Positions 2,300 to 39,108 of a stretch of DNA of 64,000 nt are shown piece after piece. Positions within the stretch are counted from its first letter, which is position 1; each line of letters begins with the position of its first letter. This DNA comes from an uncultured virus (IMG/VR IMGVR_UViG_3300042503_001397) (lineage: Duplodnaviria > Heunggongvirae > Uroviricota > Caudoviricetes): IMG/VR virus record IMGVR_UViG_3300042503_001397, one strand, 5' to 3'. Under the pieces are notes generated by a model that was not told the origin of the DNA, did no database searches, and was given only the letters and a program-made list of their open reading frames with translations. The position numbers were made by a program, and so were the translations under genes.

Positions 2300-4381
2300 T
2301 TAATACGTTGTATTAACAGTTATCCAAGTACTACCATTATGGAACATTAACCAAGATTGTCCAGCTGAGCCAGATGAGTATAACATACCAGCCTGCCCAG
2401 TTGGTGCGAATTGATTTGGTATTAAATGAATTCCAGAATACAAAGCAATAGAACCACTAACCGTTAATATTTTTTGAGTTGGTTCAAATCTTAAATCAGC
2501 TTCAACAGCACCTGCCGTTGTTACATTATTATATGTTATTATACCATCATTAGTAGTTCCTGTTAAAGTTAAAAATCCACTCACACCACTTGTACCACTT
2601 GTACCACTCACACCACTTGAACCACCACCACCTGTCAATCCAGCTGAACCATTTGTACCAGAAGTACCGTTTGAACCAGAAGTACCATTTGTACCTTCTA
2701 CCCCACTTACTCCAGAAGTTCCCGATGTACCTGAAGTTCCATTAGAACCATTAGAACCAAATCCATTACTTCCACTTATTCCACTTGTACCAGATGTACC
2801 ATCCGTTCCAATTCCATCATTTCCAGAAGTTCCCGATGTACCACCTGGCCCTTGCGTTCCACTAGTACCCGATGAACCATTTGAACCAGCAGCGGATGAA
2901 ATACCCGATGAACCATTTGTACCAGAAGTTCCACTACTACCAGGAATACCATTAAATCCACTCACACCAGATGTTCCAGATGTACCACCACCACCGCCGC
3001 CTGTTATAGTAACTTGTGCTGTTGAATTACCCAAATCAGTAACAGTTGCTCCAGTAAATGTTAATATAGAAACATTAGATACACTATTAGGATTTGAATC
3101 CTCAACAGTTAATTTTAAAGAAGATGTTGGTGTCTGAGAATTACTTCTTCCACCCACGGCACCTACCCAAACATATCCTTGTCTTAAAGATGCTGTCATA
3201 GAACCTAATACATCCAAAGAACCTGTTATTTGTATATTATTTGTAGTTGCTACAACAGAACCCGTTGCTCTAAATATACCATCAGTTGTTGCAGTTCCCC
3301 CACCACTTCCAAATGATGAAGTAGCTACTAAAGATGTTATATTATTAGGTCCACCTACCCAAGCATAACCTTCTCTCAAAGATGCAGTTAATGTTGAACT
3401 AATATTTAACGAACCAGTTATGCGTTGATTACCATAAAAAGTATTTGCAGATGATGTTTGTGCAAATAAATTATAGTTTTGTATTTGTGTAGATGAACTT
3501 ACAATTGCTGCCCCTTTTAAAGATGCAGTATATGCCAATACATTATTTATTAAAGTTGTATCGATGGATGTTCCAGATGAACCACTTATTCCTGATGTAC
3601 CACTTGTACCGCTACTTCCACTTACTCCAGATGTACCACTTGTACCGCTACTTCCACTTACTCCAGAAGTTCCCGAAGTTCCAAAATTTGTACCATCTAA
3701 TCCGCTTGTACCACTTGTACCACTTGTACCAGAAGTTCCGCTTATACCAGATGTACCAGATGTTCCCGAAGTTCCAGAAGAACCAGAAGTTCCTGATGAA
3801 CCACTTATTCCACTTGTACCGCTTGTACCAGAAGTTCCTGATGTACCTGATGTACCACTACTACCAGAAGTACCCGAAGTACCACTACTACCAGATGTAC
3901 CACTACTACCAGCTTGTCCCGTAGCACCTGCTGTATTTATAAACCAAGATGTAAATGGTCCTCCACTACCAACAACAGAACCAACATTAACAACAAATTG
4001 ACCCGTACCACTATTATATGATGTAACGGTAGCTGTCATATAATTGCTACCATCTTTAGATATAATTGTTTGTTGACCAGGTGTCCAAGAAAGACCCGTA
4101 CCTATTGTGAAGGTTTTAGCTCCAATTGTTATTGATTCCGATGTTGATGAAATTGATGTGAATAAATCACCTTTTACGCCGGATGTTCCAGATGAACCAG
4201 ACGAACCACCACTTCCAGCCGTACCATTTGTACCATTAATTCCAGAAGTACCAGCAAGACCTGATGTTCCACTTGTACCATTAGTACCTGCACTTATTAT
4301 ACCTTCTAAGTATGTAAGATTATCATCCATCTCCACTGCGGTAAGTGGAGAACCCTTTGATAGACGTTTAGTTAATGCCAT
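2300..4381 (-). CDS. GTS-repeat (Gly-X-Y) fibre-like virion protein
   Basis: N-terminal KGSPLTAVEMDDNLTYL is typical of phage fibre attachment domains; three G-T/S-S triplet tracts. Confidence 0.6.
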   Translation of the reverse strand: MALTKRLSKGSPLTAVEMDDNLTYLEGIISAGTNGTSGTSGLAGTSGINGTNGTAGSGGSSGSSGTSGVKGDLFTSISSTSESITIGAKTFTIGTGLSWTPGQQTIISKDGSNYMTATVTSYNSGTGQFVVNVGSVVGSGGPFTSWFINTAGATGQAGSSGTSGSSGTSGTSGSSGTSGTSGTSGTSGTSGISGSSGTSGSSGTSGTSGTSGISGTSGTSGTSGTSGLDGTNFGTSGTSGVSGSSGTSGTSGVSGSSGTSGTSGISGSSGTSIDTTLINNVLAYTASLKGAAIVSSSTQIQNYNLFAQTSSANTFYGNQRITGSLNISSTLTASLREGYAWVGGPNNITSLVATSSFGSGGGTATTDGIFRATGSVVATTNNIQITGSLDVLGSMTASLRQGYVWVGAVGGRSNSQTPTSSLKLTVEDSNPNSVSNVSILTFTGATVTDLGNSTAQVTITGGGGGGTSGTSGVSGFNGIPGSSGTSGTNGSSGISSAAGSNGSSGTSGTQGPGGTSGTSGNDGIGTDGTSGTSGISGSNGFGSNGSNGTSGTSGTSGVSGVEGTNGTSGSNGTSGTNGSAGLTGGGGSSGVSGTSGTSGVSGFLTLTGTTNDGIITYNNVTTAGAVEADLRFEPTQKILTVSGSIALYSGIHLIPNQFAPTGQAGMLYSSGSAGQSWLMFHNGSTWITVNTTY

Positions 4382-4452: not shown

Positions 4453-4920
4453 CTAGTAGTAAGATTTTAGAATATCAGGCTTAATTCTGATTTCTTGTAT
4501 TTGTTTTATCCCAGATATGTTGTAAGTTCTATATGCGGATGGGTCTTTTTTATATATTGTATTGGATTTGACAAACTGATTAAATATTTTACTTCCCTGC
4601 CTATCGCATAATATTAATAATTGTCCAAGCTTTTGTTCAGTAGCGAAATCGGCATCTGTTAAACCTTTTCTAAATATTGGTTTTAACCATTGAAAAAACT
4701 TTTCAGGTTTAATATCACTTATTTTTATACAAGTTAATTTTTTATCTGTTGTAATTCCAATAACAAATACAAATGCTGTTTTTGTACCTGATAATGTTTT
4801 TGTTGTACCATCTACATATTCGTAGGATGTAATTTTATATATGTTACGAGGAAGAATCTGCGATTTACTCACAGATTCCTCACTCAATATTAATGGTTTA
4901 TATTGTAATGAAAATGCCAT
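4453..4920 (-). CDS. Hypothetical protein
   Basis: 155-aa ORF coupled to the upstream GT stop. Confidence 0.7.
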   Translation of the reverse strand: MAFSLQYKPLILSEESVSKSQILPRNIYKITSYEYVDGTTKTLSGTKTAFVFVIGITTDKKLTCIKISDIKPEKFFQWLKPIFRKGLTDADFATEQKLGQLLILCDRQGSKIFNQFVKSNTIYKKDPSAYRTYNISGIKQIQEIRIKPDILKSYY

Positions 4921-6212
4921 TAGTTAATTTTATTCAATTTAGGTATTTGCATTTTCGAGCTATTAACCTTTGGTAAATTAAACGGAACTAATTTTGGTTG
5001 TGCTTTTACATAACTTTCCATTATTTCAATAAATTTATCATTCATCTTATCTAATGTAAAATTATTTAATGTATTAGTTCTCAACCCTTCAGATTTCTTT
5101 AAATAAATATCATAGTTTTTATAAACATCATAGATTTTATTTGCGGCTGTAGAGTAATTTACACTAAACCATTGTGCTTCTTTCATAAGAAATTGGTCAG
5201 CTGCAGATTCATCTACCGATGTCAAACTACCTTCCAATAAAACAGAATGTTCTGGTGGTAGGAAATCCAATTGTCCACTCCAACCACTAGCTATAATCGG
5301 TTTACCGGTCAAAGTAAACTCAGCCATAGGTCTACCATATCCCTCACCCTTAGCGAATGAAATCATCGATTTAACTTTAGGATGGTGGTATAAGTTACTC
5401 ATATCACTTTCTTCCATATCCCCATGTACTAAATAAATAGATGGGCATTTATCACCAAATGTTTTAACTACACTTTCTATTTTTTCACGAGTTGCTTCTC
5501 TATCAATTACAGAAAAACCTGCTGATGATGTTTTGATAATAAGACCAGGTCTTTTATCTTTAGGAGTATGTTGAAATACTGTGGCAAATGTTTTAATTGC
5601 CATACCAATATCTTTTCTATCTTGTCCTAAATTTCCTTTCAACCAATGCCCTACAATTAAGAAGTTAAAATCTTCTTTTACATTTTTTAATATATCCTTA
5701 CCACTTCCTTTAGAAAATATATCAGTATCAACTCCTTCAAAAAGAACTTCAATTGGAGTAATTGTTTTAATCTCTCCAACAATCTGTCCACTATCATTAT
5801 CTTTTTGCTGATATACAGTTCCACCTAAATTTTGTTTTGTAAAATTAGATGGTACAATTATCAAATTCATTTTGTTAGAACCATCGATAAAATCCTTTGG
5901 TGCTATTGTAGTTTCAACACCAGCAGTTATACCAATATTATAGTGTCCTTTTGGTTCAAACTCATTTGCTACCGAAACTTGCATAAACACATCCGGCTTT
6001 TCAGTTATTTCAGTAATAACTCTTTCTAACATCCATCTACCAAATTCGCTCTCACCATCAACTTGGTTTTGTGGAGTATTACCCCATCTTAAAGGTATGA
6101 TTTTAATATCATATTTATCCATCTTGCGTAAAGATTTCATTAAATCTCTACAATGGTCACCGTAACCACTACGAGTGAATATAGGTCCTTGAAATACTAA
6201 TGTTGGTTTCAT
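4920..6212 (-). CDS. GT4-like (GT-B) glycosyltransferase
   Basis: SGYG at the N-terminus, RKDIG, GEGYGRPMAE...GKPIIASGWSG motif. Confidence 0.88.
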   Translation of the reverse strand: MKPTLVFQGPIFTRSGYGDHCRDLMKSLRKMDKYDIKIIPLRWGNTPQNQVDGESEFGRWMLERVITEITEKPDVFMQVSVANEFEPKGHYNIGITAGVETTIAPKDFIDGSNKMNLIIVPSNFTKQNLGGTVYQQKDNDSGQIVGEIKTITPIEVLFEGVDTDIFSKGSGKDILKNVKEDFNFLIVGHWLKGNLGQDRKDIGMAIKTFATVFQHTPKDKRPGLIIKTSSAGFSVIDREATREKIESVVKTFGDKCPSIYLVHGDMEESDMSNLYHHPKVKSMISFAKGEGYGRPMAEFTLTGKPIIASGWSGQLDFLPPEHSVLLEGSLTSVDESAADQFLMKEAQWFSVNYSTAANKIYDVYKNYDIYLKKSEGLRTNTLNNFTLDKMNDKFIEIMESYVKAQPKLVPFNLPKVNSSKMQIPKLNKIN

Positions 6213-6221
6213 TTATATAAC

Positions 6222-7604
6222 TTATTTAATTTTAAATACTTCGAATCTTTCTCTTGGTTTCCAATTTTCAAAAACCGATTCGATTCCGTTTTCTAATTGT
6301 TGACACATATTCTTATGTGTTAAACCCATATCGCCCATAAATGCTTCTCTACCTATCAATCCATTTGCTTTACGAACTTCTTTTGGTGTGTTGTACATTT
6401 CCTCAATTGCTTCAGCAACTTCCTCCACATCAACTCTATCATCCCAAATATAAGGTGTTGGTACTGAACCTGCTAATGCTAATGCTCTACTCCATACAGG
6501 TTTAACCCAAGGACCAGGTTTAGCTTTTTGTTCCCACTTCCTCCACTCATGTAAAGAACCAATTTTAATGTAATCTTCGTGTGTTAATAATTTACCATCA
6601 ACTTCAAATCCACATTGGTCTTGCAATCCACCAGTTACGTTTACAATGATGGGAGTTCCCGTCATTACCGATTCTGCAGTTGCCAATCCAAATCCTTCGT
6701 TGTTAGCAATATTGATTGTTACATCTGCTATATTGTAAATAAGATTTAATTCTTCTTGAGGTCTTCTCTTTTCAGAAAATATGATATTACAATTAGGTGC
6801 TACTGCATCAATTACTGCTGGTAAATCAGTTCCATTCTCATCAACAGGTTGTGTGTGCATTACTAATACACATTTATCTGCTTTCTCCTTACCAATCTTA
6901 TCACAAAACTTTTGGAAAGCTACGATAACATCAGCTGGTTGTTTTCTACGGATATTTCTATTACTCCAATATAATACGAAGTCATATTCCTTATCACCTA
7001 AAATTTCTTTACGGAACTCAGCAGGTACTTCAGTTGGTTTGTATAAATTAAAATCAATACCATGTGGTACATAATCAATTTGCCAATCTGCTTTTGGTTT
7101 CCACGTTGGTTTAGTATCTAATGCTGATAATCTTTTAATGATACCATATGTTTGACGAGAGATACAACCAATCCAATCACAACTTTCATAGAAGTTACGA
7201 TTATATAATGGGTCTGGTAAATCATCCCAAATTGCGTAGAATAAAAGTGGGACATTTTGTCTGATTTCATGTTCGATATCATACAACCATGTCCAATAAC
7301 GAGGGTCAGTAAAATGTACAATTGCATCCGGCTTCTCTGCATTGATTAATTGTCTAATCAAATCAGCGTTACCATACCCATTCCAAGGTAAAATCTTTAC
7401 ATTAGCATCAGCGATACCATATCTTTCTTGGATATCTTGGCTAACATCTAAAACCTTTCCTGCTTCGGGGTGATTAATTGCGGCTCCTACTTGAAACCAA
7501 TCATATTTGTGTGCAGTTCCCAATACTAATTCTTTGGAAACGGTGGCAATACCACTTGCCATTCTTAAGTCATCTGATAATAACAGAATTTTCTTTTTTG
7601 CCAT
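6222..7604 (-). CDS. GT4-like (GT-B) glycosyltransferase
   Basis: VPHGID, RNIRRKQ, NEGFGLATAESVMTGTPII motif. Confidence 0.9.
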   Translation of the reverse strand: MAKKKILLLSDDLRMASGIATVSKELVLGTAHKYDWFQVGAAINHPEAGKVLDVSQDIQERYGIADANVKILPWNGYGNADLIRQLINAEKPDAIVHFTDPRYWTWLYDIEHEIRQNVPLLFYAIWDDLPDPLYNRNFYESCDWIGCISRQTYGIIKRLSALDTKPTWKPKADWQIDYVPHGIDFNLYKPTEVPAEFRKEILGDKEYDFVLYWSNRNIRRKQPADVIVAFQKFCDKIGKEKADKCVLVMHTQPVDENGTDLPAVIDAVAPNCNIIFSEKRRPQEELNLIYNIADVTINIANNEGFGLATAESVMTGTPIIVNVTGGLQDQCGFEVDGKLLTHEDYIKIGSLHEWRKWEQKAKPGPWVKPVWSRALALAGSVPTPYIWDDRVDVEEVAEAIEEMYNTPKEVRKANGLIGREAFMGDMGLTHKNMCQQLENGIESVFENWKPRERFEVFKIK

Positions 7605-8762: not shown

Positions 8763-8795
8763 TAAAGATACGAAAAATACCCGAGTTTACCAAAT
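8763..8795 (-). promoter_or_regulatory. Bacteroidetes-type promoter
   Basis: ATTTG-N20-TATCTTTA. Confidence 0.7.
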
Positions 8796-11231: not shown

Positions 11232-12443
11232 TTATCTCCCTACTTCTGATAGGTATTTAGCTTTCATTTCTTCCCAACTAATTCCAATAGCATCTATATA
11301 GAATAAGTGTTCGGGTTTAATTCTTCCTTCATCGTGTAGTTTTGTATATCTACTGATTGCATGTTTCTTCCACCATTTGTTAATGTATTCAGTACCTTGC
11401 TTAAACTTATTTTTGATGATTAATTTATCTTCGGTAATTTCGTTACGAAGAAATTCATTTCCATTCTCATACATCATAGCTAAGTACACACCTCTTTTAA
11501 ATCCGTGATGATATTCAGTTGCCTTAATACCACACTCTTTGAATATCTTACCTAATATCTTTTGTTTGATACCACTAACAGGTCCGTTTCTTTCATAACC
11601 CATATTAGCTCCATTACGGGCTCTTTCTTCGGTAATGTTTTCGGAATACCATTCTGCATGATTTTCTTTAATCCATTGATGCCACGGGTCATAGAATTTA
11701 TCATCCGGCTTCAAACTAATCTTACCAGCCGATTCACCTAAAGTTTTGAATAAGGGGATACCATTATATTGAGAGTGAATACCATATAAAGATGTTGTAC
11801 CTACTGCAATCAATATATTCTTATACTTCTCTTTCCAATAGTTTCTAACTTCAGGTACAGTAGTCATCATAGCGATTAATTTACCACCTAAAAAGTTATA
11901 ACCTAATGGTTGAGTACATACAATAGTAGAAGCAATAGTAGTGTTGTTTAACTTACCATCAACAAACTTATTATCTTTAGTCCAACCAATGAAGTTATCT
12001 CTAACTCCCATAGCGGTTACATCGGATGCTAATGAAATTTGTCCTAATAGTTTTCCACTCACTCTATCCTTTACATTAATCTTTACATTACGGCCAGGGT
12101 TTGCTGTAAAATCCATTGTGTGAATCATACGTCTTACCGCTGCCCATTTAGTAGATTCTTTTGGGTCATCCACAATCTCAACGTAAGGGTCTAACGATTC
12201 AATTTCTTTTATCGTTAGCTCCTTATTGTTGATATCAGTTGGTTTCCATTGAGAATCATAATAAGATGCTATTTGGGCTTTTGCTTGAATCATTGTAGGT
12301 TCTTGCAATTCTACCCACTTCTTATACAAAGTTTGTTCTTGTACAGACATTGTCATAAGGTAATCCATATTTTCTATTAACTTTGATTTTTCAGATTCAA
12401 AGTCAAAGACAGGTTTTTGTGGTTCAGTATCCCAAAAGCTCAT
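11232..12443 (-). CDS. DUF4338 / Druantia DruA-like protein (probable GNAT-related fold)
   Basis: PGRN..I.V.D..SGKLLG.ISLASD....RDNFIGW; QPLGYNFLGGKLIA; TTSLYG..SQYN. Confidence 0.7.
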   Translation of the reverse strand: MSFWDTEPQKPVFDFESEKSKLIENMDYLMTMSVQEQTLYKKWVELQEPTMIQAKAQIASYYDSQWKPTDINNKELTIKEIESLDPYVEIVDDPKESTKWAAVRRMIHTMDFTANPGRNVKINVKDRVSGKLLGQISLASDVTAMGVRDNFIGWTKDNKFVDGKLNNTTIASTIVCTQPLGYNFLGGKLIAMMTTVPEVRNYWKEKYKNILIAVGTTSLYGIHSQYNGIPLFKTLGESAGKISLKPDDKFYDPWHQWIKENHAEWYSENITEERARNGANMGYERNGPVSGIKQKILGKIFKECGIKATEYHHGFKRGVYLAMMYENGNEFLRNEITEDKLIIKNKFKQGTEYINKWWKKHAISRYTKLHDEGRIKPEHLFYIDAIGISWEEMKAKYLSEVGR

Positions 12444-12630: not shown

Positions 12631-13326
12631 TTACTTAATTTCTACTAAATAGTAATTTGAAGTGTAGTCACCATCAACGAATGCTACGTGCGATAATCCC
12701 TTAGATGAGATTTTCAATGAAGATGATTTAGAACCTTTGTTAGCCATTAAGATAGCTTTCAAATACTTTGCAGAAAATGCAATTGGTTCAATATCTTCTT
12801 TAGCAGTTGCTTCTACTGCAATTGAAATTCGGTTTGAGTTGATTGAAGAATATCCTAAGATAATTTCAGCTTTACCAGCCTTAACCGTAAATGTGAATGT
12901 ATCTGAATCAGATAATACACCTTTTGATTTGATGAACTTATTTACAAAGTCATCATCTAAGCTTACTTCCGTATCAAATGAAGGTAATGCTTTTAAATCA
13001 GGTACTGCAGGAATCACCGATGGTGCTGCTAACATATATTGTACCTTTGTTTTCTTATCAGAAAACTTCAATGCTCCAGTAACTTCTTCTACTGCAATTG
13101 TGTCATCCAATACACTCAATAATCCTTTTAATTGAGATGTAGTGTAAATACCAAACTCACCGCTTGGAAATTCACCACCTACTACTGTAACATCACCTAA
13201 TAAGGTTTTGTCATCTGAAATCATTCTTACCGATAAGTTCTTGTCATCGGATTTTACCATAACGGATTCAATCTCACCACCTAAGTTGTAACGATTTACG
13301 AAACCATCAAATTTGCTTTTGTTCAT
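12631..13326 (-). CDS. Sliding clamp (T4 gp45-like)
   Basis: EFGIYTTSQLKGLLSV, KISSKGLSHVAF...YYL; sits between PolB and the clamp loader. Start taken at ATG 13326, downstream of the promoter. Confidence 0.8.
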   Translation of the reverse strand: MNKSKFDGFVNRYNLGGEIESVMVKSDDKNLSVRMISDDKTLLGDVTVVGGEFPSGEFGIYTTSQLKGLLSVLDDTIAVEEVTGALKFSDKKTKVQYMLAAPSVIPAVPDLKALPSFDTEVSLDDDFVNKFIKSKGVLSDSDTFTFTVKAGKAEIILGYSSINSNRISIAVEATAKEDIEPIAFSAKYLKAILMANKGSKSSSLKISSKGLSHVAFVDGDYTSNYYLVEIK

Positions 13327-13362
13327 AATTGAAATTTTAAATTTATGTTTTAATTTGTTATA

Positions 13363-13395
13363 CAAATATACGAAAAATACCTGAAACTACCAAAT
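13363..13395 (-). promoter_or_regulatory. Bacteroidetes-type promoter
   Basis: ATTTG-N20-TATATTTG. Confidence 0.8.
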
Positions 13396-13399
13396 ATTC

Positions 13400-15922
13400 T
13401 TAAAAAGAAAAGAATTGTTCAGCGGTTTTTTGTGAAGAAAGTACTGCACCCCACCCTAAAGCCCCATAGAAGTCCTCTAATTTCTTCAATAATTCCCTTT
13501 CGAAGATTTTATCATAATCGATATACGTCCTCACCAAGTCCATTATTTCATCAGGGTCATCATGTCCTTTGAATCCAACCGCATCCAATCCATATGGGTT
13601 TTGTTTCAAATATACCCACTTAATCTTATCACCATCTCTCATTGGAGCGTGCTTAGCTGCACATTTGAAGTGAACTAATAATTGGTTATGTGCAATTGCT
13701 GCTTTAACGTGCGCCGGAGTTCCACTATTAAATTGGAACATTGCTCTATTATCTTTCTTCTTTGGAATATATTTTGATAATTCTTTTACTGCTGAGTTTT
13801 TAGCAATTGAAGTTACATCCATATTAACCAAGTCCTTTTTGAAATCATATATCCTGTCAGTTAGAACCATTTCAGTTTCACCTTGTAGAATTGAAATAAG
13901 GATACCACTCATAAACTTACGGAATTGTGCGGGGTACGATGAACGAACCACATCCAATCCTTTAACTTGCAACGTATCACAAGGAATACCATTCTCCGCA
14001 ATAATCCATTGAGCGTATCTTTTCTTAGCAATCCAAATACCACTTCTACTTACGAATTCTTTTTTGATTTGGAATCTATGTTTTGTTTTATCAACATTAA
14101 ATACTTTCTCAGCCAATACATCATAAAACTTATTTAAAAAGTCTTGTGTTTCACCAGCAATAGCATCCACCTTTAATGCAATTTCTGCATCAGTCAAATT
14201 TCTCCAATCTTTATAACGATGGTCTAAGATAGGTACTGCTGAAAAGAATACGGAATCCGTATCAATGTATATGTTAAAGTCTTGTCCGTTTGTTCCTAAT
14301 TCTTTATTGTATTTAATGTTAGCCATATCAGCCGTAGATTTAATTACAGTCTGACCTGTTGTTGTTACAGCCTCAGCGTTGTCCACATCATAGAAACGGA
14401 AAGCCGGCAAACCTAACACACCATACAAAGAGTTCAATAAGATTTTTTGTACCAACTGTCTTTTTTTATAGAAAGCGTATTTCTCTTTGTCACCACTCTC
14501 ACCATACTTCTTCTCTAATGCTCTAAACTCCACACGTTGTTTGAACCATAGGTCTAAGATATCAGGAATACAACCTACTTTATCAGTAGTGTAAAGAACT
14601 CCGTTAGATGATATAGCGTATTTACTTTCATCCAACAATTTTTTAAGATTATCTTTTGTAATACTTTTATCTCCTAAAAAGAAAGTATCAATTTCACCCT
14701 TCATAAACTTTTGTGCATCCCAATTATCAATCTTACCAACTTTAGTTTCTGGTGAAATGTTAGTTGTCATAATGATTGAAGGATATAGTGAAGTTAAATC
14801 CAAGTCATATATCCATTCGTACTTACCAACGATAGGTGCCTTCACATATGCTCCAATGAATTTCTCTTGGTCATTATCTCTAAGTGCTTGCATTCTTTCT
14901 TGTCTATCCGCAGGTTTGTTAGGAGCTACAATGTTTCTTCTCTTAAGGTAACATAACAATGCACCCTCTAAGTATTTCGATGAATAAACAAAGTCCTCAT
15001 ATGGAACGTGTCCAGCGTGACAGATACCTCTAGCCGTATCAATGAATTGTAACTTCTTATCCATATCAGCTACTAACTGAACATCGACTAAGTTATACTC
15101 AATAAACTTTTCAATATCATCTTTGAATAAATCATCTAAGTTACCAGAGTACTCAATCTTACCTCTACCCAATTCCTTCATCGCAATACTATCCAAACGA
15201 TAGTTATCTAATTCCGAATAGGTGAAGTTTTTATATAAAGCTAGGTAATCTAAATAAGATACGCCGGCCATATAGAATCTCTTACGATATGGAGACCAAA
15301 AACATTCACCTATTGGGCTTAATCTATTAGCGTGTTTAACACCTAATAGTCTTTTAATACGATTATATAAATAAGGAGTATCGAAGTTATCAATGTTCCA
15401 ACCAGTTACGATTGTTGGATTGATGTATTCATACAATTCTAAATATTTCATACACATATCCCTCTCATCTTTGAAAGGAATTACAGTACGATTGCCGGTC
15501 TTCTTCTCACTCATTTTACCAGCTTTGTCCATAATCAAAACCCAATAATGATTAGTAGCAGAATCATGCAAACCAATTGCCGTTAATTCATTTTCTGATT
15601 TTTCTACATCAGGCAAACCACTATCCATTTCACACTCAATATCATATGTAAGCGTAACGTGTCCTTCTGATGGTATATCTGAATCAGTATATGTATCAAC
15701 CAAAACTCTAGTGGTTTCGGCTACATCGGATTCAAATAAATTCGGGTCATCTTTTGTGAATTTAAAAATCTTATCTAACTTATCTCCATACAAAGATGTG
15801 TATTGTCCTCTTTGTGCTTTTTCATAAGCATACCTAACATACGGAAAGGTTCTATATCCTAACTTATCATCCCAAATGTGTACTAAATTTCTTTCTCTCT
15901 GATAATAAATATTTTGATACAT
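13400..15922 (-). CDS. Family B DNA polymerase (T4 gp43-like)
   Basis: Exonuclease YDIE, GWNIDNFD, YNLVDV; polymerase DLTSLYPS, KILLNSLYG, YIDTDS. Confidence 0.97.
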   Translation of the reverse strand: MYQNIYYQRERNLVHIWDDKLGYRTFPYVRYAYEKAQRGQYTSLYGDKLDKIFKFTKDDPNLFESDVAETTRVLVDTYTDSDIPSEGHVTLTYDIECEMDSGLPDVEKSENELTAIGLHDSATNHYWVLIMDKAGKMSEKKTGNRTVIPFKDERDMCMKYLELYEYINPTIVTGWNIDNFDTPYLYNRIKRLLGVKHANRLSPIGECFWSPYRKRFYMAGVSYLDYLALYKNFTYSELDNYRLDSIAMKELGRGKIEYSGNLDDLFKDDIEKFIEYNLVDVQLVADMDKKLQFIDTARGICHAGHVPYEDFVYSSKYLEGALLCYLKRRNIVAPNKPADRQERMQALRDNDQEKFIGAYVKAPIVGKYEWIYDLDLTSLYPSIIMTTNISPETKVGKIDNWDAQKFMKGEIDTFFLGDKSITKDNLKKLLDESKYAISSNGVLYTTDKVGCIPDILDLWFKQRVEFRALEKKYGESGDKEKYAFYKKRQLVQKILLNSLYGVLGLPAFRFYDVDNAEAVTTTGQTVIKSTADMANIKYNKELGTNGQDFNIYIDTDSVFFSAVPILDHRYKDWRNLTDAEIALKVDAIAGETQDFLNKFYDVLAEKVFNVDKTKHRFQIKKEFVSRSGIWIAKKRYAQWIIAENGIPCDTLQVKGLDVVRSSYPAQFRKFMSGILISILQGETEMVLTDRIYDFKKDLVNMDVTSIAKNSAVKELSKYIPKKKDNRAMFQFNSGTPAHVKAAIAHNQLLVHFKCAAKHAPMRDGDKIKWVYLKQNPYGLDAVGFKGHDDPDEIMDLVRTYIDYDKIFERELLKKLEDFYGALGWGAVLSSQKTAEQFFSF

Positions 15923-17038
15923 CTATGCTTTTAATTTTATATTTAATTGTTGTAACATTCTACCTTCGTTTTCTGAAAGTTCTAATGCTCTTTCTATACT
16001 TTTAATCTCTCTATCCTTTCTATAATTATCGTCATCCAATATTTTATCTAGCATTTCAAACAGGTCTTTTTTAAATTTAAAAAACAATCCGTTTGGTTCT
16101 ATTTCCTGATAACATAAAGATTCTTGATATATCATTGGAGTACCATTCATCAAACAATCCGTTGCTGATACACTCCAACCATAATTCGTTTGCCTCATTT
16201 GAATACCGACTTTACATTGTTGTAATCTACCATAGTATTCATGCTTTGGAAGTTTAGTTGAATCAATCCAGCTATGTTCCGGCGTTCCTTTTAATTGAGG
16301 CACCCATACACTAAAATCTTGTCTACGTTCTCTATATTCCTCCATCAATTTAATGAAAGTAGGGTATCCTTTATAAGCTGCTGCTCTATGATTGAATACT
16401 ATAATATTTCGTTTTTCTTCTGATGCTGATTCAATTACATTTTGTTTTGGTAGTCCCAAATTCCATACCACCAAAATATCATCTAACTTTTTAACAAACT
16501 CATCATTGAACCAAATCTTAGCTTCTTCCAATACTCTATTCTTTTGGTCTTGTGTATTAAGGTAACAAGTTTCCATTTGAGATATACCTAATAGTTCAAT
16601 AGGCATCCATCTCCATTTATTCTTTCTATCTTCCGCATTGCAGGTTTTCATTTCCCACCAATGGCAATATCCAATAATTTTTGTGTTGAAATCGTTTTTG
16701 TATCTACCAACTTGAGGCCAATCAGGCAAATGTGAGTAGATAACATCATACTCTAATGTTTCTAATAATCGATTGAAGTCGGGCGGATAGGTACGCATTT
16801 TAATCATATCGCCAGAGAAGGGTAAGATATGCTGCTTTACATTTAGTAAATTCAGTTTCCTAACCGGCTCTGGTAATATAATATTCCAAAAGTATTCACC
16901 GTGTTGCTCTAAACCTTTTATGTGGTTGTAGATAACATCAACGAATGAATCCTTTTCTATATTAGCGGAATTGGTGATATTAGGTATCACCAAAACACGC
17001 CTTGCTTCTTTACTTAATTGTCCTTCCCAAAATGTCAT
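15923..17038 (-). CDS. GT-B glycosyltransferase, possibly DNA-acting
   Basis: IVFNHRAAAYKGY and WSVSATDCLMNGTP motif; abuts the PolB start. Confidence 0.7.
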   Translation of the reverse strand: MTFWEGQLSKEARRVLVIPNITNSANIEKDSFVDVIYNHIKGLEQHGEYFWNIILPEPVRKLNLLNVKQHILPFSGDMIKMRTYPPDFNRLLETLEYDVIYSHLPDWPQVGRYKNDFNTKIIGYCHWWEMKTCNAEDRKNKWRWMPIELLGISQMETCYLNTQDQKNRVLEEAKIWFNDEFVKKLDDILVVWNLGLPKQNVIESASEEKRNIIVFNHRAAAYKGYPTFIKLMEEYRERRQDFSVWVPQLKGTPEHSWIDSTKLPKHEYYGRLQQCKVGIQMRQTNYGWSVSATDCLMNGTPMIYQESLCYQEIEPNGLFFKFKKDLFEMLDKILDDDNYRKDREIKSIERALELSENEGRMLQQLNIKLKA

Positions 17039-17048
17039 TAATTATTAT

Positions 17049-18524
17049 TTAATTTAAAAGTGATTTGTACTCATCACCACTCATATTCAACTTTTTAAGA
17101 TTATGAGATTTGCTAGTTACTACAAGATTATCATATTCAGTAACACCACCTTTTTTCTTTCCCCAACTTCTAGGAATATAATGGTCACCAACCAACTTCT
17201 TATTATCCAAAGGTTGTCCATCGTAGAAATCAATTCTACCTTGCTCTTCCCATTTTCTGATAATTTGGTCTCTAGTAAAATCACGATTATCAATTTCAAT
17301 TACCCCAAAAGAATCCATATTTTCTTTTAATTCCTTATCCAATATATAAGTGATTGTACCAATTGCTTTTGGATTTTTACCACCAAATAGTTTATTGAAT
17401 GGCTCCATTTGCTCATCATCAGTACCAAACATTAATTCATCAGCATACAACTTACCACCAGTCTTTTTATCGGTATTACTCCATTTATCATATACTTCAA
17501 AAAACTTATTTACATAGGTTTCTATAATAAGCTTTCCGTATTTGTTTTTTAACTCATAACCATATAAAATTAACATTTGAGAAAACATTGGTACAAGTTT
17601 ATATTTTCTATCAGATGCAACAGATGTAATGATATCATAAGAAAATTGAATTAGTGGTTCTAAAACCGATTCTTTATAATCTTCAAATTGTTCTTCGGTA
17701 GATAAGATACCATTGGTGGCCTGAGCCTTTGTAATCCAATCGGTGTGTTTTCCTTGTGTAAGTCCATTACGATAACCATTATGTTGTAACATAATCATTT
17801 CGGAAACAAACTCATCTACTTCCATACGGCCGTTGATTACGAACCCTTCGGAGAAATTAGATAATTTCCATTTTTTCTTCTTTCCACTATCAATTAATGT
17901 TCTATCAAATAGTTTATGCTTATTTTCAAATCTTGATATATTACGAATATATTCAGATAATCTACCACGAATAGCGTTTCTCTTTTCTTGTGGTTTCATT
18001 TCATTTGAATTATTCAAAACATTAATGAATAAATCAGCCGTTTGAGAATCTGATAAGTTTTCGTACCACTTACAGCTAATTCTATAAGAAAGTATTGTTT
18101 GATATAAATTTGGTTCGTTTTGTCTAATCCAATCTATATTCTTTTCGCGCAAATCAATACCATTGATTATAAAAGAGTCATGTTTTGGTAAACAAAACTC
18201 ACCATTTATAAAATCCAAAATAGATGTTATTCTTTGCTGCCCGTCAATAAGTTCAAAGATAAAAGATTTTCCTTTCTTAACAACTCTAATATGAATTTCA
18301 GGAATCTTTTTATACGAATTGAGAATAACAGTTAGCATTATACCTTGTTTAAAGGTAAGAGATGCTACTTTTTCTCTTTGATACTCCCTAGCCCCAGTTT
18401 CAATTTTTGGAGTTTTAGAGTCTGTTAAATACGAAATACTAACATCTCCATCGTAAGATGTTGGTTTGTTTGTTTGGCCAAAGCTTTCTTCGGCGATTTC
18501 ACAATAAATGAAATTTTCAGTCAT
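17049..18524 (-). CDS. DUF262 + HNH protein (GmrSD/SspE-like architecture)
   Basis: YQRE, ELIDGQQRITS, LF...NN (DUF262); C-terminal DHYIP...GG...NL...HNLKK (HNH). Confidence 0.85.
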   Translation of the reverse strand: MTENFIYCEIAEESFGQTNKPTSYDGDVSISYLTDSKTPKIETGAREYQREKVASLTFKQGIMLTVILNSYKKIPEIHIRVVKKGKSFIFELIDGQQRITSILDFINGEFCLPKHDSFIINGIDLREKNIDWIRQNEPNLYQTILSYRISCKWYENLSDSQTADLFINVLNNSNEMKPQEKRNAIRGRLSEYIRNISRFENKHKLFDRTLIDSGKKKKWKLSNFSEGFVINGRMEVDEFVSEMIMLQHNGYRNGLTQGKHTDWITKAQATNGILSTEEQFEDYKESVLEPLIQFSYDIITSVASDRKYKLVPMFSQMLILYGYELKNKYGKLIIETYVNKFFEVYDKWSNTDKKTGGKLYADELMFGTDDEQMEPFNKLFGGKNPKAIGTITYILDKELKENMDSFGVIEIDNRDFTRDQIIRKWEEQGRIDFYDGQPLDNKKLVGDHYIPRSWGKKKGGVTEYDNLVVTSKSHNLKKLNMSGDEYKSLLN

Positions 18525-18613
18525 AGTTTAAAATTTGCGATAATATCTTAACCTCTAATTTATAATTTTTTTGGGTTTTTAGATATCATCAGTTTTATAA
18601 ATTGTTTACTATG

Positions 18614-18646
18614 TAAAGGTACGAATAATTTGTGAATTCGCCAAAT
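18614..18646 (-). promoter_or_regulatory. Bacteroidetes-type promoter for the DUF262-HNH gene
   Basis: ATTTG-N20-TACCTTTA. Confidence 0.65.
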
Positions 18647-18662
18647 CTTTTTTACTATTTAT

Positions 18663-18691
18663 TATAACTGATTGATTATCAATGAGTTATA
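18663..18691. repeat. 29-bp near-perfect palindrome
   Basis: TATAACT-G-ATTGAT-T-ATCAAT-G-AGTTATA: 1-nt centre, one mismatched pair. Confidence 0.8.
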
Positions 18692-18693
18692 TA

Positions 18694-19494
18694 TTACCAA
18701 AAATTTTCAGTACCTTCCGGTACTTCGTATGTAGTTAGATGATGTACCACTTCTGTGTTGTATGAAGCGGTATCTTTTGGATACGGCCTGATTTCGTGCT
18801 TTAATCGTTTCATCAAATCCTTCTTTTCTTTTTTATCTTGCGCAAGTATTTGAACATATCTATGTTTTGGTGGTTCTTCCCTTCTCCAAAACTCTTTATA
18901 TCCTTGCTTACCAATTTCCATTTGTAAGTGTGCTAAGTTACCACTACCCCACATTGAAAATACAGTTCTACTATGAATCCATTGATACGGGTCTTTGTGT
19001 AATGATATACCCCAATTTGGCATCAATGCAATATCCGTAGATAATCCTTGATAAATCCAATTGGTAGCTTGGTATATTCCTCCCAAGTGAGCTTGTCCGT
19101 TATCAGCGTATGAAAGTAATACCTTAATATTCTTATCATGCTCTTTTAACCATTTGAAAGATTGTCCTAATGCAAATGATTCAATATTAGAACCATAACC
19201 ATCATCACAATATAAACGTGTCAATTCTAAAATGTTATCTTTGGTCAATCCTTCACAAATAGAAGTGGATGCTTTTGCTCCAACAGGAAACCCATAGATT
19301 AAACAACCTATAAGTTTATCACCATCAAAGGTATTAGCATCTTCTGATTTGTAATATATTCCAATTGCATATCTACAAGCTGTCCAAGCGTGAGTATAGT
19401 GCTTCTTAACAATAATATCTTTAGCGATACTCTTTGCTATTGGAGCTACATATACTTTGGATGTATCACAATAATTTTTACCTTCTACCTTCAT
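18694..19494 (-). CDS. Mom-like adenine-modification GNAT protein (paralog 2)
   Basis: KKHY, LELTRL, SNIESF, LLSYAD, HLGGIYQATNWIYQG, KHRY. Confidence 0.8.
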   Translation of the reverse strand: MKVEGKNYCDTSKVYVAPIAKSIAKDIIVKKHYTHAWTACRYAIGIYYKSEDANTFDGDKLIGCLIYGFPVGAKASTSICEGLTKDNILELTRLYCDDGYGSNIESFALGQSFKWLKEHDKNIKVLLSYADNGQAHLGGIYQATNWIYQGLSTDIALMPNWGISLHKDPYQWIHSRTVFSMWGSGNLAHLQMEIGKQGYKEFWRREEPPKHRYVQILAQDKKEKKDLMKRLKHEIRPYPKDTASYNTEVVHHLTTYEVPEGTENFW

Positions 19495-19732
19495 TCTTTT
19501 TTGCTTGTTTTGCTTTTTCTAAAATAGATAAACTTCTCTCAGCCTTTGCTAATTTTTGTCTTTGTTTCAAATCTTTTACATAACCAGCAGGATATTTGTT
19601 CTCTACTGATATAGGTCCATTTGGGAATTTATCCAAATCGTATTTCCAAATTGATTCACATCCATCATCATCTTTGTAGATATGTTCAAATTTACGTGGT
19701 TTATCCTTAGCGCTGGGTTCTACTCTTGCCAT
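19478..19732 (-). CDS. Hypothetical protein
   Basis: 84-aa ORF just downstream of a promoter. Confidence 0.65.
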   Translation of the reverse strand: MARVEPSAKDKPRKFEHIYKDDDGCESIWKYDLDKFPNGPISVENKYPAGYVKDLKQRQKLAKAERSLSILEKAKQAKKNEGRR

Positions 19733-19739
19733 AACATTA

Positions 19740-19772
19740 CAAATATACGAAATTAATCTGAAACTACCAAAT
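19740..19772 (-). promoter_or_regulatory. Bacteroidetes-type promoter
   Basis: ATTTG-N20-TATATTTG, overlapping the 3' end of Mom paralog 1. Confidence 0.78.
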
Positions 19773-20526
19773 CTATCGGCTCCATTTTATGAACTTCATC
19801 GATAATATCCAACTCTACCTTTGGATATGGGAATACCTCATGTTTAAGCGATTTTAAGAGGGCTTTACGTTCCTTTTTATCTTTGGTTAGAATATACACA
19901 TAGCGATGCTTACGGGGTTCTCTTTTAATCCAGAATGGGCTTGTAACCATTGTCTGAATTATCTTTGGGTCATTCGTTCCGTACTTCACATAGGATGTCC
20001 GAGAATGATGCCATTCATCATCTTCACTCCATTTGAAACTCCAACTATCTGACCATCTGATTTTGTTACCTTGATATATCCAATTAGTAGCTTGATATAC
20101 CGTTCCTAAGTGCCCAGCGTTTGGGTCTGAATAAGATATTAGGGCTTTGATACGAGGTACATTAGTTCTTAACCATTCAAAAGATTGTCCAACGAACCAA
20201 CTCTCAATGTTACTACCATATCCATCGAATACGAATAGTCGTGTTAATTCTAATACACCATCTCTAGGAAGTAATTCGGAAATTGATGCGCCGGCATTTC
20301 TACCAACCGGGTCACCATAACAGGCAACTCCAACTAATTGTTCATTCACTCCACTAAAGAATGAATGTTCATCATCGGATATATAAAATAATCCAATGGC
20401 ATAGGATACCTTTGTCCATATTCCACTATAATGGTTATTGACAATGATATCCTTTGCTATGTTCTTATTAATCTCTCTAATTGAAAATTTAGAGATATCG
20501 CAATATTGTTTACCTTCTACTTTCAT
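19753..20526 (-). CDS. Mom-like adenine-modification GNAT protein (paralog 1)
   Basis: NNHY, LELTRL, SNIESW, LISYSD, HLGTVYQATNWIYQG, KHRY. Confidence 0.8.
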   Translation of the reverse strand: MKVEGKQYCDISKFSIREINKNIAKDIIVNNHYSGIWTKVSYAIGLFYISDDEHSFFSGVNEQLVGVACYGDPVGRNAGASISELLPRDGVLELTRLFVFDGYGSNIESWFVGQSFEWLRTNVPRIKALISYSDPNAGHLGTVYQATNWIYQGNKIRWSDSWSFKWSEDDEWHHSRTSYVKYGTNDPKIIQTMVTSPFWIKREPRKHRYVYILTKDKKERKALLKSLKHEVFPYPKVELDIIDEVHKMEPIDLVVSD

Positions 20527-20726
20527 AAGCTACCACTCCAAAAATGATTTAAATGAGTCCAAGTTTTACGTTGAATTATCTTCAATACATTTGATGGTGA
20601 TACCTTATTGTTTTGGGCAATAACTTTAATATTACGATGACCCATTCTCCATAGGTCTCTAATGATTAAAACTTGTTCCTCTGTCAGTTTTGCTGACGGG
20701 TGTTGCTGCCCTCTTAAAATTGCCAT
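20523..20726 (-). CDS. Small HTH DNA-binding protein (like the C-terminal domain of HNH homing endonucleases)
   Basis: RGQQHPSAKLTEEQV..IR...IAQ...VS...V..I..RKTW.H. Confidence 0.7.
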   Translation of the reverse strand: MAILRGQQHPSAKLTEEQVLIIRDLWRMGHRNIKVIAQNNKVSPSNVLKIIQRKTWTHLNHFWSGSL

Positions 20727-27788: not shown

Positions 27789-28610
27789 CTATGAATTGAA
27801 AAGGTCATCAAATGCTGATGCTACATCATCGATTTTCTTCGGTGATTCTTTTGGTGCTGATTTTGTTTCATCAACATCAAATGGTGCTTCATCATTTTTT
27901 GCGGTAGATGCTAACGTTTCTACTGCTGCAGTAGATGTATCTTCATCACCATTAGCGGATGGGTTTAACCAACCTTCTAATACATTTTTCAATTCCGAAT
28001 AAGTCAACTCTTGGTAAAGGTCTGTGATTTCGGTTTGTCCATTGATAAACTTATCAGTTTCTTCTTTAGTTGCTGCTAAAGGAGTTTCTTTTGGTTTAAC
28101 ACGGATTGTTGTTACAGGGTAAGAAGTACCACTGTCTTCAGCTGATACTACTTCAACAGTAATATCTCTACCTTCATTTGGGTCAGTAATATCACCATAA
28201 TCTGGGTCAGCAATGTAACCTAAGATTTCCTGATAAACTGTCTTTCCAAAGCCCCAAAATCTTACACCTTCACCTTCTTCACCTCTTACCAATACTGGTA
28301 CGAATGTTCTAAGTTTCGGCTCCATTTTCTTGGCAGCTTTCCAATCTTCTTTATCACCCATTCTTTTCAACTTATCAGCGAACTCAACGATAGGGTCAGG
28401 TCTGCCAAAAGAAGATGGAGATAGATAAGATTTGTTGTTAATGTTGTAGTGAAAGAATAATTCAATAAAAGGATTCTCTTTGTTGAATTTGTAAGGGACT
28501 AAACGAATAGTGTGTTTGCCCGGAGCTGGTTTCCAAAGTTCTACTTTCTTTGAAGTTGTGCTTTGTAGTTTGTTCAGTCTACCTCTGATTGCGTCTAAGT
28601 TAATAGCCAT
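27789..28610 (-). CDS. Single-stranded DNA binding protein (T4 gp32-like)
   Basis: WKP, IRLVP, FWGFGKTVY, DITDP..G.D, acidic tail AFDDLF. Start taken at ATG 28610. Confidence 0.85.
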   Translation of the reverse strand: MAINLDAIRGRLNKLQSTTSKKVELWKPAPGKHTIRLVPYKFNKENPFIELFFHYNINNKSYLSPSSFGRPDPIVEFADKLKRMGDKEDWKAAKKMEPKLRTFVPVLVRGEEGEGVRFWGFGKTVYQEILGYIADPDYGDITDPNEGRDITVEVVSAEDSGTSYPVTTIRVKPKETPLAATKEETDKFINGQTEITDLYQELTYSELKNVLEGWLNPSANGDEDTSTAAVETLASTAKNDEAPFDVDETKSAPKESPKKIDDVASAFDDLFNS

Positions 28611-28696: not shown

Positions 28697-28729
28697 CAAA
28701 TATACGACAAATTATCGGACTTTCCAAAT
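28697..28729 (-). promoter_or_regulatory. Bacteroidetes-type promoter (proximal, gp32)
   Basis: ATTTG-N20-TATATTTG. Confidence 0.75.
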
Positions 28730-28786: not shown

Positions 28787-28819
28787 CAAAGATACGAAAA
28801 ATATACGAAACTACCAAAT
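28787..28819 (-). promoter_or_regulatory. Bacteroidetes-type promoter (distal, gp32)
   Basis: ATTTG-N20-TATCTTTG. Confidence 0.75.
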
Positions 28820-38211: not shown

Positions 38212-38244
38212 CAAAGATACGAAAATTATATTAAAATACCAAAT
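38212..38244 (-). promoter_or_regulatory. Bacteroidetes-type promoter, very close to the PolA-like start
   Basis: ATTTG-N20-TATCTTTG ending 5 nt before ATG 38206. Confidence 0.75.
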
Positions 38245-38647: not shown

Positions 38648-38681
38648 AAAAAAATCCCAAACTATTAAAGTTCGGGATTTT
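38648..38681 (-). terminator. Terminator of the tmRNA gene
   Basis: AAAATCCCGAACT-TTAAT-AGTTTGGGATTTT followed by T's. Confidence 0.8.
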
Positions 38682-39065
38682 GGTGGAGATGAGGGGAATC
38701 GAACCCCTGTCTTACAAAGTAATCATAATACCAGCATATCACACGTTTAGGTAAAGTTTAATCTTATTCACTTTCCAAAATAATTGGGGCCGTATGGTTA
38801 GTACAGCTTTTCCACCAATTCGTTGATTCGGGCTCAACGAATAAAGCCTTTGTAAACACTTCTGTTCCTAGGTTGTATGTGCACCGACCCGATTGTTGTG
38901 ACTAGGCTGCTACAGCGTAATCAGCACCTACGAAAGCCATAAGGTCTTCGAAGGTCATAGTTGACATTTCGTCAGTTATTGTTTTGTACAGATTTAAAGA
39001 CATCTAGCACTTCTGTCTACGTGTGGTACTACCATTCTCATTGCAATCAAGTCCATGGCATCCCC
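38681..39065 (-). ncRNA. ssrA: tmRNA (385 nt)
   Basis: 5' GGGGATG pairs with 3' CATCTCC-ACCA including G3:U70; T-arm AGGGG-TTCGATT-CCCCT; ATAACT before the resume codon; tag frame 38973..38902 encodes DEMSTMTFEDLMAFVGADYAVAA*. Confidence 0.93.
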
Positions 39066-39075
39066 ATATAATATG

Positions 39076-39108
39076 TAAATATACGAATAATAATTTAGAT
39101 TACCAAAT
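39076..39108 (-). promoter_or_regulatory. Bacteroidetes-type promoter of the tmRNA
   Basis: ATTTG-N20-TATATTTA ending 10 nt before the tmRNA 5' end. Confidence 0.75.

Follow-up and report, generated by a model that had tools for sequence, protein, structure and literature searches.

We describe here an island in a DNA stretch of 64,000 nucleotides (nt) from an uncultured virus (IMG/VR record IMGVR_UViG_3300042503_001397; the whole stretch is referred to as the window), in which a gene for a DUF262-HNH nuclease occupies a variable slot directly upstream of a glycosyltransferase (GT) gene. The nuclease gene is optional and has been transferred horizontally between phages, and the accompanying genes for a helix-turn-helix (HTH)-like protein, Mom-family proteins, a DruA-like GNAT and the GT track PolB, with conservation across hundreds of T4-like phages from water, all uncultured. 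The explanation we favour, at what we judge to be even chances, is a vertically inherited DNA-hypermodification core combined with a horizontally exchanged, optional nuclease that serves in conflict and is homing-like in its spread. This core would comprise the HTH-like protein, MomA, MomB, the DruA-like GNAT and the GT-B enzyme, and would be passed on vertically inside the replication module.

The window derives from a T4-like myovirus, with genes for a clamp loader, UvsX, a gp32-like single-stranded DNA-binding protein, DnaB, ribonucleotide reductase, sheath and tube. Between 11 and 25 kb every gene is on the minus strand. The initial annotation, made from the letters alone, had described a co-oriented island between thioredoxin/ribonucleotide reductase and the family B DNA polymerase (PolB), with an HTH protein, two Moms, a small open reading frame (ORF), DUF262-HNH and a GT, and all of these genes were present on the minus strand, with their identities borne out by family searches and folds. 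Missing from that description was a DruA/DUF4338-like gene that belongs to the same module in relatives. Read along the minus strand, with ribonucleotide reductase and thioredoxin upstream, the order is thioredoxin, the 67-amino-acid (aa) HTH-like protein, MomA, the 84-aa ORF, MomB, DUF262-HNH, GT-B and PolB. The features of the island and its flank are:

20523..20726, minus strand: 67-aa HTH-like protein, its stop overlapping the MomA start
19753..20526, minus strand: MomA, Mom-family GNAT (PF25680 E 1.2e-43)
19478..19732, minus strand: 84-aa ORF between MomA and MomB (ORF call)
18694..19494, minus strand: MomB, second Mom paralog (PF25680 E 1.5e-44)
18593..18693, minus strand: conserved 5' flank of the slot, with a promoter-like motif variant at about 18600-18640
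17043..18592, minus strand: swappable segment, i.e. the nuclease ORF and a ~70 nt leader (blastn breakpoints)
17049..18524, minus strand: DUF262-HNH protein of 491 aa (GmrSD_N/DUF262 and C-terminal HNH)
15923..17038, minus strand: GT-B (GT4-like) glycosyltransferase of 371 aa, starting 10 nt past the nuclease stop
13400..15922, minus strand: PolB, conserved flank (PF00136 and PF03104)
12631..13365, minus strand: sliding clamp (PHROG 223 E 7e-13), with a promoter-like motif at 13364-13394
11232..12443, minus strand: DruA/DUF4338-like GNAT (PF14236 E 3.3e-19; PADLOC DruA E 1.2e-15)

The best isolate match of PolB was Microcystis phage Mel-JY01 (52%), whose thioredoxin-PolB interval holds just two small hypothetical genes; the island is therefore accessory to the T4-like backbone. 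A blastn search with the island gave no match among GenBank phages. Record G001 is the same phage as the window and overlaps it only above window position 28490, hence outside the island.

Synteny in relatives, which had been proposed as a check, was analyzed in IMG/VR by searches anchored either on the nuclease (39 loci at 41% identity or more) or on the GT (the best 80 of at least 573 relatives of the window GT, and 79 loci with the GT of a distant clade). Duplicates were removed, and loci without a recognisable upstream gene were dropped (15/80 and 24/76). The results showed a variable slot and a core conserved beside PolB. Relatives with PolB 59-100% identical have the order thioredoxin, HTH, MomA, MomB, DruA-like (here or after the clamp), nuclease, GT and PolB, and in those with PolB about 31% identical the order is DruA-like, nuclease and GT, usually beside PolB or the clamp loader. 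Among 97 unique GT-anchored junctions the slot was empty in 34, held the window's nuclease family in 13 and other genes in 50 (several of these with nuclease or ParB-like signals), some of the junctions scored "other" being family B genes missed by the ORF filter. Where the slot is empty, either 1 nt lies between the DruA-like stop and the GT start or the two genes overlap by 4 nt. By clade, the unique junctions were occupied as follows:

Near clade, 51 junctions: empty 24, window's nuclease family 6, family B 9, family C 3, other DUF262 1, other 8
Distant clade, 46 junctions: empty 10, window's nuclease family 7, family B 5, family C 3, other 21

Seen from the nuclease, the GT was the next downstream gene in 32/39 loci, and another four (L016, L030, L034, L044; L numbers are loci of relatives) end before the GT position. 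When five relatives that carry the core and are 79-100% complete (CheckV) were searched, the nuclease family was found nowhere in any of them (0/5), as compared to 5/5 positive-control records.

The exchange is most clearly visible among close relatives. In L068-L079, with PolB 83-100% and GT 95-99% identical to those of the window, family C, family B or another DUF262 gene stands in the nuclease position. Comparison with L068, L069, L072, L076 and L129 by blastn showed that homology ends at window 18593-18658 and restarts at 17042-17056, so that the replaced segment is the ORF with its ~70 nt leader and the promoter-like motif stays in the flank. Horizontal transfer was further supported by L023, where PolB is 98%, the DruA-like protein 94% and the nuclease 50% identical to the window, and the nuclease is 88% identical to those of L020 and L021, two phages with PolB at only 60% identity. 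For 14 phages compared pairwise, the Spearman correlation with PolB identity was 0.83 for the DruA-like protein, 0.76 for the GT and 0.38 for the nuclease, and between the deep clades the nuclease is 44-47% identical, as compared to 30-33% for PolB, 25-29% for the DruA-like protein and 33-38% for the GT. Identities of GT and nuclease were also discordant in L020 (77% and 49%) and in L015 (69% and 66%). Taken together, the nuclease gene is sporadic at one locus among close relatives and spreads horizontally, as expected of a homing gene. Sporadic insertion is one half of the refuting condition set in the initial annotation, and the fixed pairing of modification with one discriminating nuclease proposed there finds no support in these data: the nuclease is missing from 84/97 junctions, unrelated genes replace it in near-identical phages, and it moves horizontally. 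Obligate co-inheritance of modifier and nuclease is contradicted by the same data (13/97 junctions and 0/5 near-complete relatives with nuclease, discordant phylogeny).

Besides the window's own family, the following genes were found as occupants or neighbours of the slot:

L072, L130: further DUF262-HNH lineages
L125, L205: GHKL ATPase
L123, L125: small HNH genes, as expected of homing endonucleases
L080: endonuclease-like protein of 337 aa
L184 (E 2.5e-5), L180 (E 6.5e-4): proteins of 324-327 aa, PHROG "ParB-like partition protein"
L206: D12 adenine DNA methyltransferase
L040, L155: second GT
L033, L156, L184: cytidylyltransferase-like gene
L017: sulfotransferase

For family C the nearest named protein-atlas clusters are all ParB_N, and motifs of the form PNP..N/DAGHTR and D...E-x-K can be seen by eye. 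The Atlas model of family B aligns over residues about 130-410 with ParB/Spo0J proteins at TM 0.31-0.36, GIY-YIG-like and DGNHT motifs are visible by eye, and Pfam gave SegE GIY-YIG in 3/11 members (best E 0.18) and otherwise nothing. For both families PDB sequence searches returned nothing meaningful and PHROGs nothing. Profile comparison of family C with alignment A1 likewise gave nothing, and that of family B with family C aligned 34 columns at a probability of 5%.

The window's nuclease is built from an N-terminal GmrSD_N/DUF262 domain (PF03235, E 2.3e-7, 31.6 bits, slightly below the 33.2 cut-off) and a C-terminal HNH domain, the latter matching PHROG endonuclease VII (E 5e-5, residues 415-489) and a Cas9d HNH (E 2.6e-5). 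A PADLOC match to NsnA covers residues 84-285 (E 7.7e-7); in PMC12065111 NsnA is described as the ParB-DUF262 plus ParBDB sensor of Menshen, and the DUF262 domains of GmrSD and SspE as sensing modified DNA. The REYQRE and DGQQR motifs of the window's nuclease family are both invariant: in 18 aligned members R46, Y48, Q49, R50, E51 and D94-G-Q-Q-R98 never vary, nor do D447, H448, N466 and N475 of the HNH domain. No DUF1524 match was obtained in the nuclease at E<=0.01, therefore it shares the GmrSD architecture without being a GmrSD member. From 5092 candidates, 330 homologs were retained at E<=0.001; the 120 listed are 46-100% identical, all but one with at least 95% query coverage, and PF03235 was precomputed for most of the homologs listed. 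Bacterial and archaeal genomes (one per species, 185,579) gave only short matches to the N-terminal domain, at 24-43% identity and none beyond residue 257, and tblastn against GenBank phages found Vibrio phage QD01 alone (27% identity over 34% of the query). Within the collections searched, members of the family occurred only in contigs of uncultured viruses. Full-length homologs, invariant NTPase and HNH motifs and intact slot ORFs are signs of a functional rather than a decaying gene, as far as can be told from the sequences. The five slot regions in which no ORF had been scored at first all proved to contain intact ones, and no pseudogenised slot genes were seen, with no systematic search made for decayed copies.

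Both Mom genes are clear family members, scoring 149.5 and 152.6 bits with PF25680 (cut-off 27.1), and the Mom profile of the window matched Mu Mom (8bv8) at E 7.8e-14. When this profile was aligned to 8bv8, with the S124A substitution in that chain counted as a check, H32, Y33, R96, S109, D134 and Y144, invariant in 12/12 aligned Mom sequences, corresponded to Mu H58, Y59, R111, S124, D149 and Y159. According to PMC13219725, the glycine carried by Gly-tRNA(Gly) is attached by Mu Mom to adenine N6 in double-stranded DNA, after which the adduct rearranges, and the enzyme needs H58, Y59, R111, S124, D149, R151 and Y159 for activity. MomA and MomB are 48% identical and form two separate orthologous lineages across relatives. 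Their divergence is greatest in the region aligned to the Mu DNA-binding insertion, so that a difference in specificity between them is plausible from the alignment. Relatives have from none to three Mom genes. In L204:1-2029 and L143:5925-7970 three tandem Mom-like genes immediately precede the GT, without an intervening DruA-like gene, an arrangement suggesting that GNATs of Mom type and of DruA type can stand in for each other as partners of the GT. We also noted that MomB-type proteins end in an aromatic pair (FW, YW or FF at the extreme C-terminus in 27/30 distinct tails across loci) and that near-clade PolB tails have an FF-x-F ending.

The 67-aa protein gave weak HTH signals only (MarR E 0.007; PHROG 20467 E 2.4e-4). 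In relatives its gene, with products 58-96% identical, likewise immediately precedes the first Mom gene. The 84-aa ORF had no family match in Pfam, PHROG, PADLOC or NCBIfam and is confined to the nearest relatives (L068-L080, L129; 44-99% identical). In relatives without it MomA and MomB abut or overlap, and the ORF with its promoter-like motif looks like a small insertion that splits an otherwise overlapping pair.

The DruA-like gene of the window lies 3.5 kb beyond the island, past PolB and the clamp, with the clamp, a 59-aa ORF, a 118-aa ORF and a dUTPase as neighbours; in many relatives it is within the island, directly upstream of the slot and the GT. The protein scored 69.6 bits with PF14236 (cut-off 27), and in PMC10853773 DUF4338 is termed a GNAT. 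The core of its structure model (residues 80-353) matched exclusively GNATs in a comparison with 48,161 chains (VIA), Mu Mom 8bv8 being rank 2 in a tie with other GNATs (Z 8.0, root-mean-square deviation 4.4 over 151 residues). No further Druantia gene was matched by PADLOC among the nine window proteins scanned.

The same structure comparison with Z scores was applied to the AF2 model of the GT (mean predicted local distance difference test score, pLDDT, 85.9). It returned sucrose-phosphate synthase, PimB' and BshA, all GT4-type (Z 26.1, 25.8 and 25.4; for 6kih Z 26.1 with 341 residues aligned), and Foldseek gave MshA 3c4q as best match (E 8.5e-13). Judged from the model, the 371-aa protein is clearly a GT-B by fold with GT4-type retaining enzymes as its nearest structures, and the Pfam GT4 and GT1 matches were below cut-off (19.6 and 18.4 bits as compared to 28.5 and 26.4, E about 1e-3). 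T4 DNA alpha-glucosyltransferase 1y6f was rank 33 (Z 19.6), and T4 beta-glucosyltransferase was not among the 50 matches listed, for which reason the enzyme was not labelled as beta-glucosyltransferase-like. Invariant residues include N216-H217-R218, K223, D294 and E312, which presumably lie at the nucleotide-sugar ligand position of GT4 motifs. The ~447-aa gene downstream of the slot in the distant clade is a homolog (38% identity, E 1e-69). Its product (e.g. L009:6431-7777) has a conserved C-terminal extension of ~75 aa (alignment columns about 420-496, motif GWGRGIKW.PYRRAL..HPNI.D) that is missing in the window's clade and, by eye, may be a winged helix. In L023 (1846-2988) the GT is 60% identical to that of the window, and 56-60% to every other GT compared; since PolB stays at 98%, the GT allele is also exchanged occasionally. 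With regard to a possible acceptor, the complete core-carrying relative G004 has ThyX and no ThyA-family gene was found in it, and four other core-carrying relatives have one ThyA-family gene each; there is thus no general need for a ThyA-type enzyme that would provide a hydroxymethyl-pyrimidine acceptor. A Tet_JBP search gave no match in five relatives, and none in the control genomes either.

Transcription of the slot may be provided by the phage flank. The promoter-like motif TTTGG-N16-20-CGTATNTTT has seven intergenic matches in the window, all on the minus strand and each a few to tens of bases 5' of a start codon, as compared to none expected from 100 shuffles:

19741..19771, minus strand: directly upstream of the 84-aa ORF
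8764-8794, 13364-13394, 28698-28728, 28788-28818, 38213-38243 and 39077-39107, minus strand: the other matches

The motif resembles the Bacteroidota promoter consensus (-33 TTTG, -7 TAnnTTTG), which would suggest a Bacteroidota host and early transcription by the host polymerase.

According to our model, the DNA of the phage itself is most likely the target of hypermodification by the core. If the Mom paralogs work as Mu Mom does, they would load N6 of adenine in duplex DNA with an aminoacyl group taken from charged tRNA; another mark, acyl or aminoacyl, would come from the DruA-like GNAT, and a sugar from the GT. The slot upstream of the GT would be served by the resident host-type promoter in the conserved 5' flank. 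Its nuclease would consist of a ParB-type NTPase sensor with intact nucleotide-binding motifs, a helical DNA-binding middle and an HNH cutter, and would cut foreign DNA, from the host or a co-infecting phage, with the phage genome shielded by the core modifications. Self-modification had been put forward in the initial annotation and still appears reasonable on gene content, as the replication module contains two conserved Mom lineages together with a third GNAT and a GT-B; its chemistry is inferred throughout. A more specific version, in which tRNA-dependent aminoacyl-adenine marks from the Moms and the DruA-like protein are glycosylated by the GT4-like enzyme and the interchangeable ParB-NTPase nucleases of the slot destroy unmarked DNA of the host or a rival phage, so that the phages would have a viral self/non-self system of non-methyl type, we regard as unlikely in this complete form. 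The conflict model is favoured by the NTP-gated sensor-nuclease architecture, the recurrence of ParB-type proteins in the slot, the persistence of the slot across deep divergence and the intactness of the genes.

Several observations weigh against this model. The equivalent of Mu R151 is lost: MomA has N136 at this position, MomB has G, and orthologs have K, F or E. The structure predicted for the DruA-like protein is poor (pLDDT 60.9), had no Foldseek match at E<=0.001, and its core matches ordinary GNATs as well as Mom (AAC(6')-Ib, Z 8.4). Homology between Mom and the DruA-like protein was also tried by profile comparison, with a non-significant probability of 6.8%. One GT allele (95-99% identical) co-occurs with four different slot genes, and many full cores have no nuclease, from which it follows that the nuclease needs no particular partner and the core no nuclease; in L036, L045 and L046 (3/39 nuclease-anchored loci) the nuclease even lies away from the GT. 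The ParB, GIY-YIG and PD-(D/E)xK labels for families B and C are leads, as Pfam, PHROGs and PDB gave nothing usable. Finally, we infer, rather than observe, modification of the phage DNA, action of the GT and the DruA-like protein on DNA, and the activity and target of the nuclease.

The polymorphism of the slot would be explained equally well if its genes were purely selfish, free-standing homing endonucleases, which cut the nuclease-less DruA/MomB-GT allele and are copied by repair, their position in the cassette being incidental. Presence/absence polymorphism among near-identical phages, clean breakpoints at ORF borders, transfer between phages with PolB only 60% identical, small HNH genes in the same slot and the weak SegE GIY-YIG hints in family B all fit such genes. 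So does the location of the slot between conserved genes near PolB, as Seg and Mob homing genes of T-even phages are known at such sites. However, a 491-aa protein with an intact ParB-type NTPase is closer to regulated defence nucleases (GmrSD, SspE, NsnA) than to Seg/Mob, the promoter belongs to the conserved flank and not to the cassette, and decayed copies were not seen, with no systematic search for them made. Moreover, several unrelated families share the junction in two clades with PolB 30-33% identical, and since the DNA of this junction is unconserved between the clades, target-site specificity alone is insufficient. On balance we hold a purely selfish origin to be somewhat unlikely. 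There is hardly any chance, on the other hand, that the DUF262-HNH protein reads the Mom/GT marks as the obligate partner in a fixed modification-restriction pair. The tight packing of co-oriented genes, the GT as next gene in 32/39 nuclease-anchored loci and the sensing of modified DNA by DUF262 in GmrSD and SspE, as given in PMC12065111, would agree with it, but the nuclease is missing in 84/97 junctions and in 5/5 near-complete core-carrying relatives, GT alleles 95-99% identical have a family B, a family C or a different DUF262 gene as their partner, and nuclease identity does not follow GT identity (L020, L015).

Two further alternatives concern the function of the parts. The slot protein could be a subunit of the modification machinery, i.e. 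a ParB-type, NTP-dependent DNA clamp that loads or targets the GNATs and the GT on DNA, with a nuclease domain that nicks or is vestigial. Phages and plasmids commonly encode DNA methyltransferases with a fused ParB-like domain, a ParB-superfamily signal occurs in at least five unrelated slot families, and the slot-gene stop and GT start are tightly coupled. Nevertheless, the chance of this is very slim: the slot is empty in 34/97 junctions, therefore the core works without a slot protein, the catalytic residues of the HNH domain never vary, a sign that it really cuts, and occupants without detectable ParB signal exist (GHKL ATPase, small HNH). Alternatively, only the Moms modify DNA, and the GT-B and the DruA-like protein act elsewhere, for example on a protein, an RNA or a glycan of the host envelope. 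In structure the GT comes closest to GT4 enzymes that act in small-molecule, lipid and glycan pathways, two further GT genes of the window lie beside tail-fibre genes, DruA has no established function, and neighbours such as the cytidylyltransferase and the sulfotransferase would be equally in place in glycan synthesis. We consider it very unlikely nonetheless, as both genes keep a constant place in the replication module (PolB, clamp, clamp loader) in two deeply diverged clades and directly adjoin Mom genes and nucleases, and in L206 also an adenine DNA methyltransferase. The place of the DruA-like gene upstream of the GT is taken in L204 by three Mom-like genes, T4 DNA alpha-glucosyltransferase 1y6f still aligns at Z 19.6, and the ~75-aa extension of the distant-clade GT looks winged-helix-like by eye.

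If the core does modify DNA, abundant uncultured aquatic T4-like phages carry an undescribed adenine-based and possibly sugar-bearing hypermodification, which would influence sequencing, restriction and editing of these genomes and would extend the newly found tRNA-dependent Mom chemistry. The resemblance also links the unexplained DruA of Druantia to Mom-type enzymes and, if true, would be a first functional clue, namely that DruA is a DNA-marking enzyme. The slot itself is a natural experiment in nuclease exchange, with several unrelated families that have ParB-type or nuclease signals at a single position between one pair of genes, where the relation between DNA marks and phage nucleases can be tested directly.

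Elsewhere in the window two more GT genes are found on the minus strand at 4920-6212 and 6222-7604 (PHROG 2170; weakly MshA/BshA-like in NCBIfam), between an exonuclease gene and a collagen-like tail-fibre gene, and both are kept in L021 and L025. Very large tail-fibre genes with collagen-like repeats lie on the same strand at 52147-59514 (2455 aa), 2300-4381 (693 aa) and 61565-63070 (501 aa); their repeats cross-match within G001, and the GC content of those stretches reaches 43-48%. The phage also has a transfer-messenger RNA gene at 38681-39065 (minus strand), for which ARAGORN gives the tag peptide DEMSTMTFEDLMAFVGADYAVAA and which matches the full-length Rfam model RF00023 (82.9 bits, E 3e-32).

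No description of this Mom/DruA-like/GT/DUF262-HNH cassette was found in the literature covered, which leaves out most subscription journals. The combination, which the initial annotation did not recognise as a described system, is nevertheless not wholly undescribed: the linkage of Mom to a nuclease has been predicted before, as Iyer et al. 2021 (PMC7824862) treat Mom fused to restriction endonuclease (REase)-fold nucleases in jumbo phages as momylation modification-restriction systems that protect self DNA and attack host or rival DNA. Our island likewise links a Mom-type modifier to a phage endonuclease, but unlike in the fusions covered there the nuclease is a separate, optional and exchanged ParB-DUF262-HNH gene, and a GT and a third GNAT belong to the module. 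With GmrSD, BrxU, SspE and NsnA the nuclease has in common the N-terminal DUF262 with DGQQR, a helical region and a C-terminal nuclease of His-Me type. It differs by a short Cas9/endonuclease VII-like HNH instead of DUF1524 and by being phage-encoded, whereas those proteins belong to bacterial defence. The DruA-like protein is matched by the Pfam and PADLOC models of Druantia DruA (PF14236, DUF4338) and has a GNAT-fold core. In contrast to Druantia, the genes for DruB-E are absent, the gene is phage-encoded and paired with a GT-B and not with a helicase, and the phage proteins are just 25-29% identical between the two phage clades.

Compared to Mu Mom (PF25680; 8bv8), the Gly-tRNA-dependent maker of N6-carbamoylmethyl-adenine (PMC13219725), MomA and MomB are clear family members with six key residues kept. 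Two Mom paralog lineages are found here and one gene in Mu, and the Mom genes belong to the replication module, here that of a lytic T4-like phage, beside a DruA-like GNAT and a GT-B. The gene upstream of MomA is HTH-like, whereas that upstream of Mu mom encodes the zinc-finger protein Com. T4 has hydroxymethylcytosine and glucosyl-hydroxymethylcytosine in its DNA, alpha- and beta-glucosyltransferases, the host-DNA nucleases EndoII and EndoIV and free-standing Seg/Mob homing endonucleases. As in T4, a GT-B is located in the DNA-metabolism region, nucleases are dispensable, and nuclease genes come and go between conserved genes; in contrast to T4, no hydroxymethylase step is evident, the GT is GT4-like, and its acceptors would be marks made by the GNATs.

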